Part shown: positions 195-10,953 of the stretch, in pieces
How positions within the stretch are numbered: the first letter of the stretch is position 1
How the letters are laid out: each line of letters begins with the position of its first letter
IMG/VR virus record: IMGVR_UViG_2703718817_000003
Strand: one strand, 5' to 3'
From: a virus
Lineage: Duplodnaviria > Heunggongvirae > Uroviricota > Caudoviricetes
Length of the DNA stretch: 64,000 bases
Position numbers and translations under genes: made by a program
The notes under the pieces: model-generated
What the model was told of the DNA's origin: nothing
Database searches by the model: none
Seen by the model: the letters and a program-made list of their open reading frames with translations, nothing else

Positions 195-1100
195 CTATAT
201 TTCCAGACACCTGTTATCACTTAACCCATTACTGGCCTGCTGCCGCAGATATTCCCGTGGCGAGCGATAACCCAGTGCACTATGCGGATGCCATTCGTTA
301 TAATGCTCGAACGCCTCTGCAAGGTTCTTTGCTGCCGTTAACCCGTCTGGTTTAGGCATGATACTGATGTAGTCACGCTTTATCGTTTTCACGAAGCTCT
401 CTGCTATGCCGTTACTCTCCGGACTCCGCACCGCCGTGTTCTTCGGTTCAAGCCCCAACATCCGGGCAAACTGCCGTGTTTCATTAGCCCGGTAGCATGA
501 ACCATTATCCGTCAGCCACTCTACTGGAGACGCCGGAAGCTCGTTGCCGAAGCGGCGTTCCACCGCTCCCAGCATTACGTCCTGTACTGTTTCACTGTCG
601 AAGCCGCCCGTAGTGACTGCCCAGTGCAGTGCCTCACGGTCACAGCAGTCCAGCGCGAACGTGACTCGCAGTTTTTCTCCGTTATCACAGCGGAACTCGA
701 ACCCGTCAGAGCACCATCGTTGATTGCTTTCTTTCACGGCCACTTTGCCAGTATGTGCCCGTTTCGATGGCGGTACAGCGGTTTTTCGCTCAAGCAACAG
801 CGCATTCTGGCGCATGATCCGGTAAACACGTTTGGCATTGATCGCAGGCATACCATCAAGTTCGGCCTGTCTGCGAAGCAGCGCCCATACCCGACGATAA
901 CCATACGTGGGCAGCTCTCCGATAACATGGTGTATACGGAGAAGCACATCCGTATCATCTGAGTGACGGCTGCGGCGACCATCTTTCCAGTCATCGGTTC
1001 GTCTGAGAATTACGTGCAACTGCGCACGCGACACCCGGAGACAACGGCTGACTAAGCTTACTCCCCATCCCCGGGCAATAAGGGCGCGTGCGCTATCCAC
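195..1100 (-). CDS. insD: IS2 transposase InsD (orfB)
   Basis: 301-aa ORF with IS2 InsD sequence ([30 protein letters not shown]...). Confidence 0.9.
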
Positions 1101-1897: not shown

Positions 1898-2431
1898 TCA
1901 GTTGTATCCGATTGGATTAACCGCAACAATAACGCCATCCGCGAACAAATCTTTAATGAGGTGTTCGCTCGGCTCGCCTTTTTCGTACTCTTCAATAAGG
2001 TAAGTGTCTCCATCCTCATTGATATAAACTGGAAGAATGGAACCGTTGATGAAGTAGGTTCCGTTGTTATCGAGGATTTTTGCCTCGGCGATTTGTTTTT
2101 TGGTAAAACGATCTTCTTTTTTCAAAGTTGCCATATCTGTTTCCTTATGTGGGTTAATTTTATTGTGTAGCTTCCTGAATGGGGTCCACACTATATCGAT
2201 ATACAGTTCAACTAACGGTTCAAATACTTTCCCCATTAGAACAGTCACTAATATTGAGGCTATTGGTATCAGCAACACGAAAAACAGAATGATAAACAGC
2301 AATTCTAGTGCTCTACTCTTTCGCGGATATTCTTTTCTGAATAAAGTGGGCATTTCCTCCCCATTAAATGCCTCAATGATTTCTCCAGTGTTTTGCGCTG
2401 CACCTGAATTATCTTTAAATCCTTCTTTCAT
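1898..2431 (-). CDS. hypothetical protein with hydrophobic segment
   Basis: 177-aa ORF, 4-bp overlap with upstream gene; LLFIILFFVLLIPIASILVTVL transmembrane-like stretch. Confidence 0.5.
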   Translation of the reverse strand: MKEGFKDNSGAAQNTGEIIEAFNGEEMPTLFRKEYPRKSRALELLFIILFFVLLIPIASILVTVLMGKVFEPLVELYIDIVWTPFRKLHNKINPHKETDMATLKKEDRFTKKQIAEAKILDNNGTYFINGSILPVYINEDGDTYLIEEYEKGEPSEHLIKDLFADGVIVAVNPIGYN

Positions 2432-3126
2432 CGTTTGCTATCTTCCTCACACCCAAGATATGAAAGAGATGTAATTGCTTTTGCACGGAAACCACCAACC
2501 TTGCTAAGTGCGCTTTTAAGTGCGTCAAGGTCAGATTGTGATTTGATCATGAAAGTTAACCGCGCAATTCCAGACATAGAGTCAGAACCATTCACTGCGT
2601 TGTAGTGATATATGTATCGGGTGACTGATTGAGTCACGCCCTCCTGCTGGTGGTTTATATTGGCGTCCTGTCTTGTGTTGGCCTGCTCCAACTCTTCGAT
2701 ACGTTCAGCCATCGCAGCACACTCTTCAAAGTTGCTTAATGCTTTTCGCTCCGATTCAGCGCATTGTTTTTCCAGTTCTGCTATGCGCTTACCTCCATCC
2801 GCGATTACTCCCTCGTAATGCTCGCGCTGCTCGTTGAGTTTTGATTTTGCCGACTCCAGTTGTTTTGTTAGTTCCACAATACGGCAAACATCGTTGATAC
2901 GCGTTTCCTCTAATGCGTTGATCTCATCCAGTAGTGCCAAAGCAACCTTGGGATTAAAGGCAGCAATAAATTCAGCGTTGTTTTTCAGAACGTGTTGCGC
3001 AATGGCCTGACTACTTAGTCGGACCTCATAACCACGTGCGCCACGGTGTGGTTTATATGAGTCCCAGTCTCCCCACGTTGCTTTCACTGCCGCCTCACGC
3101 AGTGCCTGGTAATTAATTTCGCTCAC
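2428..3126 (-). CDS. Ea22-like phage protein
   Basis: N-terminus [13 protein letters not shown] typical of Ead/Ea22-like family; GTG start overlapping upstream stop (GTGA). Confidence 0.7.
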   Translation of the reverse strand: MSEINYQALREAAVKATWGDWDSYKPHRGARGYEVRLSSQAIAQHVLKNNAEFIAAFNPKVALALLDEINALEETRINDVCRIVELTKQLESAKSKLNEQREHYEGVIADGGKRIAELEKQCAESERKALSNFEECAAMAERIEELEQANTRQDANINHQQEGVTQSVTRYIYHYNAVNGSDSMSGIARLTFMIKSQSDLDALKSALSKVGGFRAKAITSLSYLGCEEDSKR

Positions 3127-3571
3127 TGGTTGCCTCCTTATTAATCAGTTTATACAGGTGCACCACAGTCACAGAGAGTGCATCCATCGCTCGTTTATCC
3201 AGGCGCGGGGCCAGAGCAACCAGTTCATTTATTGCAATCTGAATACGCTGCTCCGCCGCCAGCGTCGCGCGATTGCTCTCCAGTTCTGCAATTCGGCACA
3301 TGGCATCAATATTTGCGTCTTCCAGGCGCTTAATTTCGCCCAGTAGCGCCAGCGCAACTTTTGGTGGGATAGCCGCGATATAACGGGCATTGGCACCAGC
3401 GTTTCTCAGCCCATCAATACCAGGCCAGTCAATAAAGTATCCGCAATGCCTACCCTCAGACGTGCGCGCAGGATAAATGCCGTTATGACCCGGCAAAATA
3501 TATGCTACCCATTCATCTTGCGTTGCCTGTTCCGCCGCCTCGCGCAGTTCTTGATAGTTAATTTTGATCAC
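3113..3571 (-). CDS. Ea22-like phage protein (paralog)
   Basis: N-terminus MIKINYQELREAAEQATQDEW; GTG start preceded by GGAGG. Confidence 0.7.
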   Translation of the reverse strand: MIKINYQELREAAEQATQDEWVAYILPGHNGIYPARTSEGRHCGYFIDWPGIDGLRNAGANARYIAAIPPKVALALLGEIKRLEDANIDAMCRIAELESNRATLAAEQRIQIAINELVALAPRLDKRAMDALSVTVVHLYKLINKEATSERN

Positions 3572-4305: not shown

Positions 4306-5034
4306 TTATTCCTGAATGCGCTTAAACTCGATTACCCACACCCAGGGATTAGCGTTCCAGCTTTCTTCACCATAGATGGATTCCCACAGGCGCTGGAACG
4401 CAACCTTGGCCATTGCGAAATCCCCCTTGGGAGTAAGGAATGTTCCCGGGTGATCAGGGAGCAAACTTCCAGCAGGCGGAACGCCCTCATCCCTTGCATC
4501 GCATTCGCTGATATCGTTCAACCGCTCAACGCGCACGTTGGTAATTTCCAACAGGATGCGTGATGCCCATCGCGGCATGTGAATTGATGGACGCCACCCA
4601 CCATCAAACTTTTCATTCACAGTGTGAGGTTTCCAGTCGGCATCATCGGGTATCGACCATAAACCGTAATCACCAGGCTTTTGCTCACAACTGGCCCGAT
4701 AAATCCTTGCTGCGTTCTTCTCATCGCCACGACAAAGGTTGTCGTTCCAGTCCACACTGCAACCATCTTCATTGCCTAATATCGCCCATGTTTCACGAAC
4801 CCAAATTCGATCGCCGACGATACCAAAGGGGCAATTGAAAACACTGCTTACACCATCAGCCCCGTACCACTGAAAACCTGCACCAATTTCCCTAACCATC
4901 ACTGGTGCTTCTGGACCAACTTCCGCAGGCTGATTTTTCATTATCCGCCGCGTCTGCGTTTTCCTTCCTTCGAGGATGGCTCGGACCATCTCATCGTTAA
5001 AAATCATCCCGCGTTCTTTCATTTTTTGATCCAC
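4306..5034 (-). CDS. ASCH/PUA-like domain phage protein
   Basis: MIFNDEMVRAILEGRKTQTRR resembles the ASCH motif (G-x-K-x-x-E/T-x-R); start among three nearby Met is uncertain. Confidence 0.5.
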   Translation of the reverse strand: MDQKMKERGMIFNDEMVRAILEGRKTQTRRIMKNQPAEVGPEAPVMVREIGAGFQWYGADGVSSVFNCPFGIVGDRIWVRETWAILGNEDGCSVDWNDNLCRGDEKNAARIYRASCEQKPGDYGLWSIPDDADWKPHTVNEKFDGGWRPSIHMPRWASRILLEITNVRVERLNDISECDARDEGVPPAGSLLPDHPGTFLTPKGDFAMAKVAFQRLWESIYGEESWNANPWVWVIEFKRIQE

Positions 5035-5038
5035 ACCA

Positions 5039-6034
5039 TCAGTTATTGAACGTGATCACTCCGCGCTCGATGGCGAAGTCGAAAAGCTGGTTGGCGGCTA
5101 CGTAAAGGCGTATGCCATGTGCTTTTTCCCATGCCCGGACATCGTTTTCTGCGCTTCTGGCGCATTCATCGCAAAGAGGAACGGCCCAGCGATCGTGTTC
5201 GTTTAACGAGCGGGCGCGGTACATGAACGGGTGATTAACTTTGCCTCCGCATCCGATGCACGGACGAGAAATCACAAACCGGAGATAAGCCGGGCTTTTA
5301 CCGAGAACCGCTTTTGGTCGGCGCATATACAGCAGGCCGGAATCCTCATCTACAGACAGGTTGACGATCTGCTCTGCGGTTATGTCCACCAGCTCACGGG
5401 TGCTGTGCTCCCAGGTGATATCCGATTCTTTCAGTGTGCCGGTAGGGATTTCCTGTTTTGGCTGACAAAATGCAATGCGACCGGCTTCATCTGGCAGCTC
5501 GTCTTTCAGATTCCGGCGAATGGCCCAAAAAGTGAGTTCAACCATGCTCAGATCGCGTTCTGGCGGTAGTTTTAACTCGCTCGCAGCCCAGTTCATAACC
5601 CAGTTGGCACGATTCAGGGATAACTGGTCATCCAGCTTGCCGTACCCCTTCATCATGTATTCCGCATCATGCTTCCAGCACAGGCGAACGGCAGAGCCGT
5701 TATAGAAATGAGTGGTTAGCTGGTGGCTGCAATCGCGCTTATCGTGCGCCTGGCAATCGTGGATATTGGAACTTACCCAATGAACAAGCGAATCTTCACC
5801 GCCTAATGCGTTAAATACGCGCTCGCTTTGAAAAAATGCTTTCAGAGACTGGTTGGCAACCAGCGAATAGTTCAGATCCACTACGCCATCTGGCGTGTTT
5901 TCAGCCTGTTCGCGCGGAAGTGGAGAGATAATGAAACGGCGACCTGCGCCAATGTAGTTGCTGGTGGGCTTGTCTACCGGAAAGACAGCCACACCAGCTC
6001 CGTTTACGAAATGAGGTGTGATTATTGCACTCAT
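5039..6034 (-). CDS. DUF968-like phage protein with C-terminal Cys cluster
   Basis: 331 aa; C-terminal CIGCGG...HDRWAVPLCDEC zinc-binding-like motifs typical of prophage DUF968 proteins. Confidence 0.5.
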   Translation of the reverse strand: MSAIITPHFVNGAGVAVFPVDKPTSNYIGAGRRFIISPLPREQAENTPDGVVDLNYSLVANQSLKAFFQSERVFNALGGEDSLVHWVSSNIHDCQAHDKRDCSHQLTTHFYNGSAVRLCWKHDAEYMMKGYGKLDDQLSLNRANWVMNWAASELKLPPERDLSMVELTFWAIRRNLKDELPDEAGRIAFCQPKQEIPTGTLKESDITWEHSTRELVDITAEQIVNLSVDEDSGLLYMRRPKAVLGKSPAYLRFVISRPCIGCGGKVNHPFMYRARSLNEHDRWAVPLCDECARSAENDVRAWEKAHGIRLYVAANQLFDFAIERGVITFNN

Positions 6035-6076: not shown

Positions 6077-6106
6077 TGTTAGAAAATTAAAATCAATATT
6101 CTAACA
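6077..6106. promoter_or_regulatory. palindromic operator-like site (TGTTAGAAAATT..ATATTCTAACA) upstream of phosphatase gene
   Basis: Inverted repeat with core TGTTAGAAAAT; same motif recurs at seven other intergenic positions. Confidence 0.5.
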
Positions 6107-6138: not shown

Positions 6139-6825
6139 TTACGGCTGGCCTCCCTTCACCTGCTTTAGCGTCAGATTTCCGCAAAAAACCGCGCCAGTGT
6201 CTATGTAGTGCTGGTTCCAGAAAGATTTCGGGCTGTTTACTGGCGTATGCCCGAAAATAAAGCTATCTGCACCAGTGATCATTCCACCAACACCATCAAC
6301 CGCGTCATAAAATCGCTCACGCCGCCAGGTAACATTGAGATCGCTAACAGGTTTACCAAACTGGTATTCGTTATCAGGATAGTCGGCATGGGCTATAACG
6401 ATAGTTTCATGCCCGGTGTTCAACTCAATGATATAGGGTAAACGTCTTACCAGCTCCACCAGCGCCCTGGCTAATATTTCCCGATCAGCGTCCAGCATGA
6501 AGAACCATTGGCCGCCATTCATTAGCCAGTTATTCACGTTGCCTGCGGGGCTTAACGCATCGATCATTAATCGCTCGTGGTTTCCCATAACCGACCGAAA
6601 CCAGGGCATCTGCAATAGCTCCAGGCATTCAACATTTTCGGTGCCGCGATCGATAAGGTCGCCAACCGATATCAGTAAATCCTGTGTCGGGTCAAAGTCC
6701 ACACGATGAAGTTCAGACATCAATCTGGTGTAGCAACCATGCAGATCACCAACAACCCATATGTTTCTGTAGCCTGAACCATCAATACTGCTATATAAAT
6801 TCACTTCATGCAGCGCCTGGGTCAT
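6139..6825 (-). CDS. Ser/Thr protein phosphatase (lambda PPase/PrpA-like, calcineurin-like phosphoesterase)
   Basis: [29 protein letters not shown] motifs; start set at MTQALHEV (6825) giving ATGA overlap with upstream gene. Confidence 0.85.
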
Positions 6826-7133
6826 GCGGCAACCTTCTCCCGCAGCCAGATACAAACCGGGCCATCTTCAGTGTCATGAATAGAGCCAACAAACCATCCT
6901 TCGCCCTCTGGTCGCTCTGGTTCCCAGGCGGCAATATCGGGACCATCTGCGTCCAGATTAAAATGATCTTCATCCATACTGCGAATAGTCCACTGAAGAT
7001 TATTTTCCTTCATCCAGGCGTCAAATTCCTCAGTGGATATATATTCACGACCTGCGCAAAACTTTTCATACTCCGGATGTGTCCAGCAGCCATATTCATC
7101 ACGTTCTACCGGCATTTCTTTAATGATGCTCAC
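6822..7133 (-). CDS. hypothetical phage protein
   Basis: 103-aa ORF, operon-style 4-bp overlaps on both sides. Confidence 0.45.
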
Positions 7134-7354
7134 TCTTCATCCTCCAAGTCGGCAACGGCCTCCATCACATCAGAACCGCGAATAACCTCAAAAGCACGGC
7201 AGGCCATTTCAAACACCTGTTGTTCTTGCGGATGCGGTGACTCCCAATACTTAAAACCAGGTCGATGCTCGTAACCCAACATGGAATAAAAATCGCCAGC
7301 AAGCTCAATCGCGGCATCAACAAGTTCGCGATTTGTCATCGTCTGTTCTGTCAT
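7130..7354 (-). CDS. hypothetical phage protein
   Basis: 74-aa ORF, 4-bp overlaps with neighbours. Confidence 0.4.
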   Translation of the reverse strand: MTEQTMTNRELVDAAIELAGDFYSMLGYEHRPGFKYWESPHPQEQQVFEMACRAFEVIRGSDVMEAVADLEDEE

Positions 7355-7626
7355 TTTGTTTTCTCCTGTCTGAACATCACTATCATCAGGTCGCCTTTTG
7401 TCGCTATCCTGGCTGTTGTACCTGGTTCAATGCGGCTAAGCTCAAATGCGTCATAGAACGCTTCTAATGCCTTCTGGCGTAGTTCCTGTTTGCGCCGTTT
7501 TTTCCACTGTTTCAGGAAAATGGAACCCAGCCATCGCCATGTACGGGACATGATGTAAAGCCAACCGAGAAGTGCCAGACCGGTATTTAGGAGCGTATCG
7601 ATCGTTATTGTCGTGTCGATATTCAC
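7351..7626 (-). CDS. small membrane protein
   Basis: 91 aa with one hydrophobic helix (LLNTGLALLGWLYIM) followed by basic stretch. Confidence 0.45.
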   Translation of the reverse strand: MNIDTTITIDTLLNTGLALLGWLYIMSRTWRWLGSIFLKQWKKRRKQELRQKALEAFYDAFELSRIEPGTTARIATKGDLMIVMFRQEKTK

Positions 7627-8335
7627 TGGCTGCCTCCTTTGCGAAGCTGTTCAGCAATACTTACGCATATCTCTGCGCCTCTAATCAGCCCCGGAACGTT
7701 CTTGTTTGGCCCAACTTCACCATCGACAAAATCAATCATCGCGTTACGAGCCATATCCACGCCCTGCGCACGTACTTCAGCCAGGAAAGCATCGGTGGCT
7801 GGGGTATCAACACGGATACTGTCGCGCAAGATGAAAAATGCATTGAGCATTCCAGTCTCTGGCACTTCATCCTGATGCTTCTCATACGCATCAAGAGCCT
7901 TCATCATCTCAGCTCCGAATGGTTGAGGGTGCACAGACTTCAGCTCCGCATTCTCCGCCGCCAGCACCGCGCGTTCGCTCTCCAGTTCTGTAATGCGCCG
8001 TCTTGCAGCATCCAGTTCAATCGACAATTTTCCCAACTGCTCTTTATGCTTCTTGTATTCCTGATATGCGTGCCAAGACTGACCTTTGCGCACACTATCC
8101 GTGATATCAGTAATCTGTTCTGGTGTTAGCGTGGTCAGTGGCTGTGCTGGGAAAATCAGCACTTTCCCGGCATCCCAATCAAAACCCACCTGAATTGACT
8201 GAACCTCAACTGATGGTGTTGAACCGATGCGACCAGGCGAATGAACAACGATCGTTACATCCATATCGCGACGATGGCTGTGGTTGTTGGACAAAATACG
8301 ATTCACCAACTCAGAAAATTTGGAAAATTTCATGC
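7623..8335 (-). CDS. Ea22-like phage protein (paralog)
   Basis: C-terminus EQLRKGGSQ; start set at MKFSKFSEL (8333) directly after upstream stop with AAGGGA SD; ORF-track start 8384 would overlap 54 nt. Confidence 0.6.
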
Positions 8336-8653
8336 TGATTCCCTTTGCTCTTCCAGGATAATGTTGTTGCAATCTTTCACGCACTCGTTGCAGATGAAAA
8401 CGTTGTCCCCGGCAATTAACTTTTTAACGGTGTGCTGGGATTTGTTGCAGAAGCTGCAATAAAGCGTTGGACTGGCTGATACGGATGGTGCGCCAGATGT
8501 CAGCCGCGCGATGTCGTTCTTGCGACGCAATATCACACGGCTGCACTCGACCAGCATCTCCGGGGATATATCCTCCTCCGTGGCGAGCGCCTCCAGACGT
8601 TCGAGCAAGCGAAATACTTTTTCCCGGGTGATTGCAGAATGCGATGTGGTCAT
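8330..8653 (-). CDS. ClpX N-terminal zinc-finger (C4) domain-containing phage protein
   Basis: C-terminal [36 protein letters not shown] closely matches the ClpX zinc-binding domain; start at MTTSHS (8653) with AAGGAGAG SD. Confidence 0.65.
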
Positions 8654-8654
8654 C

Positions 8655-9140
8655 TCACTCTCCTTTGAGGCGAATGCCTGTTGCAATGCTGTTTATGATG
8701 CTGTCAGTGCATGGGGTAGAAAGCTGGGCATCTCCAGCAATTTTCATGACCTCAACATCTGCATATCGAATACCGAGGTGTATCAGACCGGCTATGCCTG
8801 ACTTAAGCCGAGCATTTTCCATAAATAGAACCTTTGCCCGCTGTTTTTCTGCTTCAAGCTCAACGCGCAGCTTCCCTACCGTTAGCGCAATATCCTCGTT
8901 CTCCTGGTCGCGGCGTTTGATGTATTGCTGGTTTCTTTCCCGTTCATCCAGTAGTGCCAGCACGGTTTCTGGTCCGGCCAGAAATTTGAAGGCGTTGAGC
9001 GCATCAATATCCACACCGTAATCTTTAAGTTCCTGTTCACTTAACAAATCATCATCAGCTGGCAACATTAACAGGCGTTCCATTGCTGGAATTGCACGTT
9101 CCGCCGCCTCACGCAGTGCCTGGTAATTAATTTCGCTCAC
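8655..9140 (-). CDS. Ea22-like phage protein (paralog)
   Basis: N-terminus [16 protein letters not shown]; GTG start with GGAGG SD overlapping upstream stop. Confidence 0.65.
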
Positions 9141-9811
9141 TGGTTGCCTCCTTTGCGAAGCTGGGCAGCGAACCTATCAGCTGCATCCGCGCAAGCAGAA
9201 GCAACGGAATCAAAAAATGGATCATCTCCTGTATCGCGCATCGTCAAAGCGAATGCCTCCACCCCTTGTGCCTGTATTTCTACAAGGGATGCCTTAGATG
9301 TAGTGCTTTTCGCCTCGCCTAATTCGTTATGAGCGATGTTCGCTATACATGCGATGTCTATATCTGGATGATTAATTGGGCAATGGCTAAGAATTGCCTC
9401 AAGTGCTGCTTTTTTGCTTTGGCATTCCGCCACCAGCGCCCCGCAATTGCTTTCCAGCTCTGCAATACACTTTTTAGCGGCCTCCAGCTCAACACGCAGA
9501 TTCTCAAGCGTTAGAGCCTTCTCCACGTTCTCGTCCAGCAGTTCAATCACATCAGGATCGCTACCATCAACTACTGATATGCGCGAATTTTTGTAATGCT
9601 CGTCAGCATAAGTTCGTCCAGTTTTGAAGCATCCGTCATCCTCCATGCCGGAACAGGCATAAACAACATGTGATCCAGATATGCGCTGCATTGACATTTC
9701 CTCGCCACAAACAGGGCATTTAGGCGCTGGTTTCGGTGAATAACGTTCACGTAACGGATAGTAAAGCTCGATCTCCGCCAGTTGCTCTGGCGTTAAACCT
9801 TCAGACTTCAT
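9137..9811 (-). CDS. Ea22-like phage protein (paralog) with N-terminal Cys4 zinc ribbon
   Basis: C-terminus [10 protein letters not shown]; CPVCGEE...YACSGMEDDGC motif; AAGGAGAG SD before ATG. Confidence 0.65.
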   Translation of the reverse strand: MKSEGLTPEQLAEIELYYPLRERYSPKPAPKCPVCGEEMSMQRISGSHVVYACSGMEDDGCFKTGRTYADEHYKNSRISVVDGSDPDVIELLDENVEKALTLENLRVELEAAKKCIAELESNCGALVAECQSKKAALEAILSHCPINHPDIDIACIANIAHNELGEAKSTTSKASLVEIQAQGVEAFALTMRDTGDDPFFDSVASACADAADRFAAQLRKGGNQ

Positions 9812-10118
9812 GTACTCTCCTTTCGAAATAAACGTACTGATTAATCATTCCCAGGGGCATTTCGAGTTTTTCTGCGATCTCACGGCGGGGAACACCACAC
9901 TGATGAAGCTGCCGCGCCAGTTCTATATCGCTCTGCCGGTATTTGGCTGACTGGTGAAAGTCTCCTTTCAGAATCATGCTGATCCGCAGTTGCCGCGCTT
10001 TAGTCCTGACAGCACCACCGGTACGCCCGATCAGTCTCCCAATACCCTCGACTGTCATAGTCCCGGCGCACTGGCGGAGCATCATGATTTCTGCCCTTCC
10101 CCATCCCCGCCAGCTCAC
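9801..10118 (-). CDS. small helix-turn-helix DNA-binding protein
   Basis: 105 aa; HTH-like segments (GVPRREIAEKLEMPLGMINQYV); candidate transcription regulator. Confidence 0.4.
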   Translation of the reverse strand: MSWRGWGRAEIMMLRQCAGTMTVEGIGRLIGRTGGAVRTKARQLRISMILKGDFHQSAKYRQSDIELARQLHQCGVPRREIAEKLEMPLGMINQYVYFERRVHEV

Positions 10119-10726
10119 GCAGAACTCCTTCTAACCAAAAGAACGCCATCTTCAGAAACAATGTTGCAGGACTTCAGGTAATTCATTGCTACTTTCGGTA
10201 ATGGATTCTTTGGATCGGCGTTTGCCAGGGATTTCGATAACCTCATGATAAATTTGATCATTACCTTCTGACGGAGCTTGTGCTCATGAGATGCAGACAG
10301 GTAATAGGAAATGGTATGGGCTAAACGCTCACGAAGCTGTTCTGTGCCGTGATATACAGCAGCGATATCACGCAGTGCATTGACCAGTTCCCGGTAAATA
10401 TGCGGAGCAACCTGGCATTCAATGTTGGTTGGTGACTCATAAATTACATTCAGCCCCAGCTTTTGAGCCAGCTCGTGCTCTGCACGAGCGCCAACTGATT
10501 CCTCCCACCCCTTGAGCAAATAGACCGCATTAGCCGAACGCACCATTGCAAGGCAAATATCCATGTATTCGCTCTCGCAGAGGCCAGCAGGTAACAGCGC
10601 CGGATTCAGAACAATATGCCCTACCTCCATCAGCTCTTTTGCTTTCGAAAAAAACGCTGTGCGGTTGTAGTCGGGATAACCAGTCATCGGCCCTGCGATG
10701 TAAATTTTCATAATGCGTTTTGACAT
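10115..10726 (-). CDS. DUF4406 / nucleoside 2-deoxyribosyltransferase-like protein with C-terminal extension
   Basis: MKIYIAGPMTGYPDYNRTAFF...NPALLP N-terminal signature; start set at MSKR (10726) where upstream small ORF stop overlaps (TGATG). Confidence 0.5.
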   Translation of the reverse strand: MSKRIMKIYIAGPMTGYPDYNRTAFFSKAKELMEVGHIVLNPALLPAGLCESEYMDICLAMVRSANAVYLLKGWEESVGARAEHELAQKLGLNVIYESPTNIECQVAPHIYRELVNALRDIAAVYHGTEQLRERLAHTISYYLSASHEHKLRQKVMIKFIMRLSKSLANADPKNPLPKVAMNYLKSCNIVSEDGVLLVRRSSA

Positions 10727-10881
10727 CAAAGTTTCCCCAGGAACGTTACGCAAAAGTTGATGAGAGCAAAGAGTTCAATGCCCAGCTCAAACAACGCCAG
10801 GACAGTGAAAAACAGGGCATATAGCAACCCAATTTCTGTACCGGATTGCTGGTGGATTGCACTTATTGCGACAAGCATCAT
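10726..10881 (-). CDS. small hydrophobic peptide (about 50 aa), first gene of leftward operon
   Basis: ATG at 10881 with GGAGGT SD; product MMLVAISAIHQQSGTEIGLLYALFFTVLALFELGIELFALINFCVTFLGKL; below ORF-track size cutoff. Confidence 0.4.
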   Translation of the reverse strand: MMLVAISAIHQQSGTEIGLLYALFFTVLALFELGIELFALINFCVTFLGKL

Positions 10882-10921: not shown

Positions 10922-10953
10922 GTGTTAGAAAATCAATTTTGATTTTCTAACAC
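10922..10953. promoter_or_regulatory. 32-bp perfect palindrome operator between divergent operons
   Basis: GTGTTAGAAAATCAATTTTGATTTTCTAACAC, perfect inverted repeat; between leftward early operon and ref-like gene. Confidence 0.6.

Follow-up and report, generated by a model that had tools for sequence, protein, structure and literature searches.

A free-standing ClpX-type zinc-finger protein

The window, as we call the whole stretch of DNA analysed here, comprises 64,000 nucleotides of a virus of the Caudoviricetes (IMG/VR record IMGVR_UViG_2703718817_000003) and carries a small gene whose product contains a zinc-binding domain (ZBD) like that at the N-terminus of the unfoldase ClpX. The gene lies on the minus strand and has 107 codons, as shown by the open reading frame (ORF) list and the sequence, with its ATG start at 8653..8651 and its TGA stop at 8332..8330. 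It is a real gene, with a translated-looking ORF. An earlier sequence-only reading of the window had claimed an ORF at 8330..8653, and the ORF is present precisely there, intact and preceded by a Shine-Dalgarno sequence; the reading had left the strand unstated. The stop codon of the upstream gene, which encodes an Ea22-like protein, is at 8657..8655, one base away from the ATG, and the stop codon of the ZBD gene in turn shares bases with the start of the next gene, as ATGA. The placement of the Shine-Dalgarno sequence suggests that translation of the ZBD gene is coupled to that of its Ea22-like upstream neighbour. The coordinates of the gene, its parts and the surrounding features are collected in Table 1.

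Table 1. Features at and around the ZBD gene, in window coordinates (CDS, coding sequence; aa, amino acids; pLDDT, predicted local distance difference test).
Feature	Position	Strand	Basis or remark
Stand-alone ClpX-type zinc-finger protein, complete CDS, 107 aa + stop	8330..8653	minus	PHROG 6797; near-identical RefSeq entry WP_021551796.1, 'ClpX C4-type zinc finger protein'
N-terminal helical hairpin, residues 10-52 (helices 10-26 and 31-52)	8498..8626	minus	AlphaFold pLDDT 82-88; profile search of 1.84 billion representatives
Linker, residues 53-62, low-confidence, Ser/Ala/Pro-rich	8468..8497	minus	Junction that joins the ZBD cassette to other N-terminal modules in P0022 and P0024
ClpX-type C4 zinc-binding domain, residues 63-106	8336..8467	minus	Pfam, PDB and Foldseek matches; codons checked on the sequence
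Shine-Dalgarno sequence AAGGAG	8660..8665	minus	6 nt 5' of the ZBD-gene ATG, within the 3' end of the upstream Ea22-like gene; read from the sequence
Co-directional string of 11 overlapping or abutting genes, including the ZBD gene	6139..10881	minus	ORF list, Pfam and plasmid annotation
Perfect 30-bp palindrome TGTTAGAAAATCAATTTTGATTTTCTAACA, candidate repressor operator	10923..10952		Divergent intergenic region between the ZBD operon and a Ref-family gene

From N- to C-terminus, the protein consists of a helical hairpin, a flexible linker and a ClpX-type ZBD, and it has no ATPase. Residues 65-100 matched Pfam zf-C4_ClpX (PF06689) over profile positions 2-38 of 39, with E = 2.4e-17 and 63 bits (gathering score 27), and the top sequence matches among solved structures were those of the E. 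coli ClpX ZBD (1OVX, E = 2.6e-15; 2DS5, E = 1e-14). These matches bear out the sequence-only reading, which had recognised a ClpX-type ZBD in the C-terminal ~40 residues of a free-standing protein. It had also called them nearly a copy of the ClpX domain; the match is far beyond chance, but this wording was generous, as an in-register comparison with residues 12-51 of E. coli ClpX gave 28 identities in 40 positions (70%). All four ligands of the CxxC-18-CxxC zinc site are kept, C14/C17/C36/C39 of ClpX corresponding to C66 (codon at 8456-8458), C69 (8447-8449), C88 (8390-8392) and C91 (8381-8383); ClpX is numbered here as the mature protein, which reproduces the published ligand positions. Residues of the ClpX docking pocket are also kept by sequence, F16 as F68 and I46 as I98. 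Overall, the window domain shares with that of E. coli ClpX (1OVX, 2DS5-2DS8, PF06689) the fold, the C4 zinc site, the F16/I46/I47 pocket and the core, but its clade differs at ClpX positions 18, 23, 31, 32, 34, 41, 42 and 45. ClpX is moreover an AAA+ ATPase whose ZBD is N-terminal and precedes a linker, whereas the window ZBD is C-terminal and follows one.

An AlphaFold2 model built from a 24-sequence alignment had a mean pLDDT of 75 and a predicted template modelling score of 0.34, a low value that is expected because two domains are held on a flexible tether. Residues 63-106 were modelled as a zinc ribbon and a helix (89-106) preceded by short strands, a predicted treble-clef-like fold in which the C-terminal helix starts at the second CxxC. 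The best Foldseek matches of the model in the PDB were 2DS6 and 2DS5, both crystal forms of the ClpX ZBD (probability 1.00, 71% identity over 38 columns, root-mean-square deviation 2.8). Their E-value was only 2e-3 because the domain is tiny.

The protein is not a ClpX unfoldase. The NCBIfam models TIGR00382 and NF003745 scored 46 and 42 bits where the cutoffs are 359 and 371, the ClpX equivalog match was restricted to profile positions 5-50, and the 107-residue protein contains no AAA+ module. Nor is it a carboxylate--amine ligase, as an older name has it, since zf-C4_ClpX is its sole Pfam domain and 107 residues are too few. That name has long been propagated (NC_050154.1, D6 orf93; NC_026014.1, P88 gp19; and many nr entries) and, on domain content, is an annotation error. 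PADLOC defence-system profiles gave no match to the window protein at E ≤ 0.1, and Ead_Ea22 (PF13935) gave none at E ≤ 1; both flanking genes matched PF13935 (E = 2e-32 and 3e-10).

Relatives, mosaic neighbours and descent from clpX

PHROG 6797, annotated as of 'unknown function', matched the window protein over its full length (E = 5.2e-56; positions 1-106 of the 107 in the profile aligned with residues 1-106). In a word-indexed search of 5.8 billion proteins, full-length relatives fell into ~24 clusters, and all those with a named source came from Escherichia or Salmonella. The gene is present in 195 of 5426 complete E. coli genomes (~3.6%), in roughly equal shares on plasmids and on chromosomes; its annotation there is 'ClpX C4-type zinc finger protein' throughout. 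In PLSDB it was found almost only on non-mobilizable plasmids, from Escherichia, Salmonella, Shigella and E. albertii, with sizes of ~84-120 kb among the matches listed. Phage-plasmids, lambdoid prophages and P2-like phages all carry homologues, and in all three phage types the gene always neighbours early or replication genes and is co-oriented with them. D6 orf93 (82% full-length identity) and P88 gp19 (52%) have the same two-domain architecture, and the P2-like members (P88 gp19, P0040, P0042) retain both hairpin and ZBD at 52% identity. In P2-like phages the gene comes after replication gene A and before ogr/portal, the slot in which P2 carries tin and old. Together with PHROG 6797 and the RefSeq entries named for the ClpX C4-type zinc finger, D6 orf93 and P88 gp19 are true members of the family, catalogued and uncharacterised. 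The window protein is thus a member of PF06689 at the level of the domain, and at the level of the protein it belongs to a catalogued phage family that is named by its domain and has no functional study.

The N-terminal hairpin has a narrower distribution. Its profile, run against the 1.84 billion representatives, found only ZBD-linked proteins, truncated or frameshifted copies and repeat-derived artefacts, and the hairpin is therefore private to the ZBD family. A tblastn search with residues 1-59 returned family members only, Foldseek gave no match for the hairpin in the PDB or BFVD, and Pfam gave only a chance-level match to Sp-DndD (E = 0.14). Two weak hits of the hairpin profile, P0046 and P0047, contain a repeated 'FSILKRIEASAT'-type unit with variable spacers and are most likely translated repeat arrays (CRISPR-like), not homologues. 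This conserved helical domain had gone unmentioned in the sequence-only reading, as had the shuffling of the ZBD cassette, the type of element and the existing domain-based name.

The Ea22-like genes around the ZBD gene are mosaic (window 7623-8333, 8655-9140, 9137-9811, 2428-3126 and 3113-3571), with PF13935 matches at 8655..9140 and 9137..9811 and two more at 2428..3571. For example, the protein encoded at L003 8005-8526 combines the N-terminal ~100 residues of window 7623..8333 with the C-terminal ~60 residues of 8655..9140, and a C-terminal '...AEQLRKGG(S/N)Q' module is common to 7623..8333 and 9137..9811. Members of the ZBD family exchange N- and C-terminal modules with Ead/Ea22-like proteins in the same manner. 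In P0022 and P0024, Ea22-like coiled-coil N-termini precede the linker and ZBD; P0001, P0008 and P0017 have at their start the N-terminal part of the Ea22-like gene next to the ZBD gene. A lambdoid prophage (L007) has P0022 as a called gene, which lies just 3' of a lambda-P-like replication gene and is immediately followed by a gene for a DUF551 protein. Lambda Ea22 has been described as an N-segment, a coiled coil and a dimeric, portable C-terminal domain, with unrelated C-terminal domains across phages (PMC10834534). The ZBD protein resembles lambda Ea22 and the Ead/Ea22-like proteins in its neighbourhood, its modular build, in which a junction connects a helical part to a portable and presumably dimeric C-terminal domain, and its recombination joints. 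It differs from them in having no PF13935 match, a much shorter helical part and an N-terminal domain found exclusively with ZBD partners. We found no conserved partner gene: the downstream gene is homologous among the Ea22-type contexts and unrelated in P88.

Where the helical part meets the C-terminal cassette, the motif L(K/T)S(G/V) recurs, as RLTSG at window 8495-8503 in the ZBD gene, RLKSG in 8655..9140, ELKSV in 7623..8333 and GLKSG in P0022. It resembles the 'LKxh' consensus proposed for docking of RssB and SspB to the ZBD (PMC7226468); with four degenerate residues, the resemblance may be chance, or the motif a mere recombination joint. Outside the family, a metagenomic protein of 145 residues (P0025) has two tandem ClpX-type ZBDs, and two others of ~118 residues (P0026, P0031) have a ZBD followed by a second CxxC...CxxC motif.

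How old is the relationship with clpX? When the DNA that codes for the ZBD was aligned for P88, the window and E. coli clpX, the mean column identity across the three was 79%. Between P88 and clpX, nucleotide identity was 65% and all synonymous sites were changed. This strong divergence of the coding DNA, much greater than that of the proteins, rules out a recent capture from the host clpX and indicates an old one. Amino-acid identity to the ClpX ZBD was nevertheless kept at 70-78%, a stronger constraint than one would expect a generic zinc ribbon to require. Among 27 family ZBDs the four ligands and, in ClpX numbering, F16, I28, G30, I35, V40 and C43 are invariant; the I46 position is Ile or Val in 25 and the I47 position is Ile in 24. 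Positions 18, 23, 31-32, 34, 41-42, 45 and 48-51 are variable or systematically changed in the family.

The phage-plasmid, the operon and candidate operators

The window derives from a D6-like phage-plasmid, not from a lambdoid phage. Copies of the locus that are 99.3% identical occur on E. coli plasmids of ~90-95 kb, and phage D6 matches a 24-kb stretch of the window at 80% identity, virion structural and plasmid-maintenance genes included. The D6 homologue, orf93, lies in the same Ref to ppp/pdcB accessory region. On the best-matching plasmid the neighbours are annotated as Ref nuclease, Icd-like, Rha/Ant, DUF4406, two Ead/Ea22-like proteins, DUF4752, metallophosphoesterase and DUF968, and Pfam scans of the window ORFs agree with this annotation.

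The string of genes that includes the ZBD gene probably forms one transcription unit, because its eleven minus-strand genes overlap or abut. In order, they encode a small ORF, DUF4406, a DNA-binding protein, two Ead/Ea22-like proteins, the ZBD protein, a 236-residue mosaic protein, DUF4752, two small ORFs and a metallophosphoesterase. The palindrome at the start of the operon appears, when read by eye, to overlap a weak candidate minus-strand promoter (TTGATT-17-GATACT). Its half-site, TGTTAGAAAATCA, occurs 10 times in the window with up to two mismatches, compared to 2.3±1.4 times in shuffled sequences, and none of 100 shuffles reached 10. Copies of the motif TGTTAGAAAAT(C/T)A lie at 10923-10952 and at 6077, 11571, 14970, 22562, 30636, 33650, 61717 and 62918. 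They are mostly intergenic and 5' of gene blocks, and an inverted partner, ...ATTTTCTAA, is often present. These scattered TGTTAGAAAATYA sites are a candidate operator set for a master repressor of the element and resemble operators of the P1 type, although the P1 C1 operator consensus itself is found nowhere in the window. D6-like elements carry a c1 gene for a repressor of the lytic cycle (PMC6799933). The label 'early operon', which the sequence-only reading had given to the gene, is a reasonable inference, made plausible by the operator-like palindrome, albeit for a D6-like phage-plasmid and not a lambdoid element.

The accessory region is interrupted at window 195-1100, on the minus strand, by an IS3-family-type transposase ORF with HTH_21 and an rve/rve_3 integrase core. 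On the side corresponding to this transposase, the best-matching plasmid (L001) instead carries a type I restriction system (hsdR/hsdS). A related D6-like plasmid (L006, NZ_CP085065.1) has a gene for a TnpB/InsQ RNA-guided endonuclease at 4460-5839, followed by a HicA toxin gene, in its virion-gene region.

Possible roles of the ZBD protein

What might a free-standing ClpX-type ZBD do for a phage? Wojtyra et al. reportedly found in 2003 that the isolated domain inhibits degradation of lambda-O. Added in trans at 5-20 μM, it also inhibits the RssB-mediated breakdown of sigma-S by 0.6 μM ClpXP (PMC7226468). In ClpX, the N-domain is a dimer on which SspB and RssB dock and which helps to recognise lambda-O, MuA and FtsZ, while it is dispensable for ssrA-tagged substrates (PMC5415555, PMC7226468, PMC7804408). 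The hydrophobic side pocket that holds F16 and I46 is used by trigger factor; it overlaps the site of lambda-O and is where SspB and RssB bind (PMC7804408). For the phage protein, the sequence-only reading had stated that it knew of no characterised function, and full-text literature searches likewise found no study of a stand-alone or phage ClpX zinc-finger protein, and no ClpX-directed phage inhibitor of this kind; a 2025 review concurs that the function of phage ClpXP homologues is unknown (PMC12707154).

Our tentative proposal, which we hold at somewhat less than even chances, is that the window protein is a decoy sequestering adaptors or substrates that depend on the ClpX N-domain. It is the simplest reading because a free-standing, conserved ZBD with intact pocket residues is encoded in a phage operon. 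The phage ZBD would fold and dimerise like the ClpX N-domain and would offer the same hydrophobic docking pocket. Upon derepression of the operon, N-domain-dependent clients, that is, the adaptors SspB and RssB and direct substrates such as lambda-O-type initiators, MuA and FtsZ, would be contested between the protein and the three ZBD dimers that each ClpX hexamer carries. The N-domain branch of ClpXP proteolysis would then be dampened, while N-domain-independent degradation, as of proteins with an ssrA tag, would go on. The hairpin would probably act either as a second oligomerisation interface, adding avidity, or as a binder of one preferred client, adding specificity beyond that of the bare ZBD. 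The benefit to the phage may be the stabilisation of a phage or host protein relevant to replication or to the lysis-lysogeny decision. A two-domain architecture that holds down to 52% identity, a strong Shine-Dalgarno sequence with coupled translation and an operator-like palindrome at the start of the operon are all consistent with this proposal.

The nearest functional analogues of the proposed role are phage inhibitors of Lon and the anti-adaptors of RssB. T4 PinA and T7 gp4.5 are small early phage proteins that inhibit the host protease Lon, and they are not copies of a protease domain. The likeness is to the role, that of a small early phage modulator of a host ATP-dependent protease. 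The anti-adaptors of RssB (IraD, IraM and IraP) are similarly small and spare a ClpXP substrate by sequestering its delivery pathway, leaving the protease uninhibited, and it has been proposed that IraD and the ClpX ZBD dock at the same site on RssB (PMC7226468). The Ira proteins have no kinship with the window protein in sequence or fold, and they are host-encoded and specific for RssB, whereas the window protein copies the docking domain of the protease and would be expected to act more broadly.

Several points weigh against a decoy. The sequence-only reading had suggested titration of ClpX adaptors or substrates; the inhibition by ZBD in trans described above (PMC7226468) and the conserved F16 and I46 favour it, but the binding of ClpX clients is a prediction from sequence conservation. 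In vitro, the bare ZBD needs a large molar excess, so a decoy would have to be abundant or assisted by its N-terminal domain. The window clade also changes residues that are common to E. coli ClpX and the more ClpX-like P88 clade (P31 to D/E, S32 to D/N/A, Y34 to F and G18 to N/K), and L42, which lies beside I46 on the ClpX helix, is Asp in the window protein. Pairwise ratios of nonsynonymous to synonymous substitution rates (dN/dS) among three close members were ~0.7-1.1 for the ZBD half and ~0.3 for the hairpin, figures that come from very few substitutions, may be confounded by recombination and should be read as a flag rather than a result. The ZBD surface may therefore be under relaxed constraint. 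Finally, the fusions of the ZBD to Ea22-like coiled coils (P0022, P0024) are what a generic dimerising C-terminal cassette would produce.

This last point leads to the main rival account, credible but somewhat less likely than the decoy, in which the domain is just such a portable cassette: a small, stable, zinc-stapled C-terminal dimerisation module of mosaic Ea22-like early accessory proteins, unlinked to ClpXP, whose function might be, for example, to bias the choice between lysis and lysogeny, as reported for lambda Ea22. The position of the gene between Ead/Ea22-like genes, the modules shared with Ea22-like N-termini in P0022, P0024, P0001, P0008 and P0017, the same swapping in neighbouring genes, the variation of the ZBD surface within the family and the dimeric, portable C-terminal domain of lambda Ea22 (PMC10834534) all fit this account. 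It does not readily explain why 70-78% identity to ClpX persists despite the diverged DNA, with the docking residues F16, I46 and I47 retained. The hairpin, moreover, lacks an Ead_Ea22 signal in Pfam and is never found with another C-terminal domain, and the P2-like homologues lie outside Ea22 arrays.

It is more doubtful still that the phage ZBD acts on ClpX directly, by forming heterodimers with its N-domain or by tethering to the hexamer in some other way, so that the hairpin either brings ClpXP a specific target for destruction or obstructs the pore or the movement of the N-domains. In its favour, the ClpX ZBD dimerises constitutively and has the same residues as the phage domain at the core positions, a flexible linker with a second, family-specific domain is a typical layout for an adaptor, and in E. 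coli the tethering of a bound target to the ZBD is enough to bring about its degradation (CLIPPERs, PMC12373786). The N-terminal domain of the phage protein, however, shows no evident motif of the degron or XB type. Exchange with the N-domains of ClpX is also unlikely given their high local concentration in the hexamer and their very stable homodimers, which Donaldson and Wojtyra reportedly showed in 2003.

That the gene is non-functional debris, a decaying clpX fragment left by illegitimate recombination, is effectively refuted by conservation: accessory regions of temperate phages are rich in gene fragments, and truncated or frameshifted copies exist (P0041, P0043-P0045), but no fewer than 27 distinct sequences, drawn from three phage types, keep the frame and architecture intact, the zinc ligands are invariant, the hairpin has a dN/dS of ~0.3, and a gene with a strong Shine-Dalgarno sequence and coupled translation recurs across E. 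coli genomes at the frequency given above.

If the ZBD proves to be a dimerisation cassette only, the finding is an ordinary one. ClpXP controls many proteins that decide the fate of phages, including lambda-O, MuA, the Mu repressor, the P1 antitoxin Phd, repressor and LexA fragments, RpoS, FtsZ and type I HsdR. To our knowledge, no phage factor aimed at the substrate-selection domain of ClpX has been described. The broader possibility, to which we give about one chance in three, is that a helical module private to this family was joined to a client-docking domain which temperate enterobacterial phages and phage-plasmids had taken over from ClpX; this would make the protein the first phage-encoded modulator of ClpXP that works by domain mimicry. 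Such an 'anti-N-domain' factor would stabilise RpoS (via RssB), the cargo of SspB, lambda-O-type initiators, MuA and FtsZ, while sparing bulk ssrA quality control. It could tune replication, the choice between lysis and lysogeny, or the exclusion by a prophage of ClpX-dependent invaders such as Mu. A decoy would point to a simple evolutionary route to host-takeover factors, namely to copy a docking domain of the host and express it alone, and would be a natural, genetically encoded tool for turning off the N-domain-dependent branch of ClpXP and no other. Both the large, mosaic and poorly understood accessory arrays of the Ea22-like type and a gene present in ~3.6% of sequenced E. coli would thereby gain a first concrete biochemical handle.

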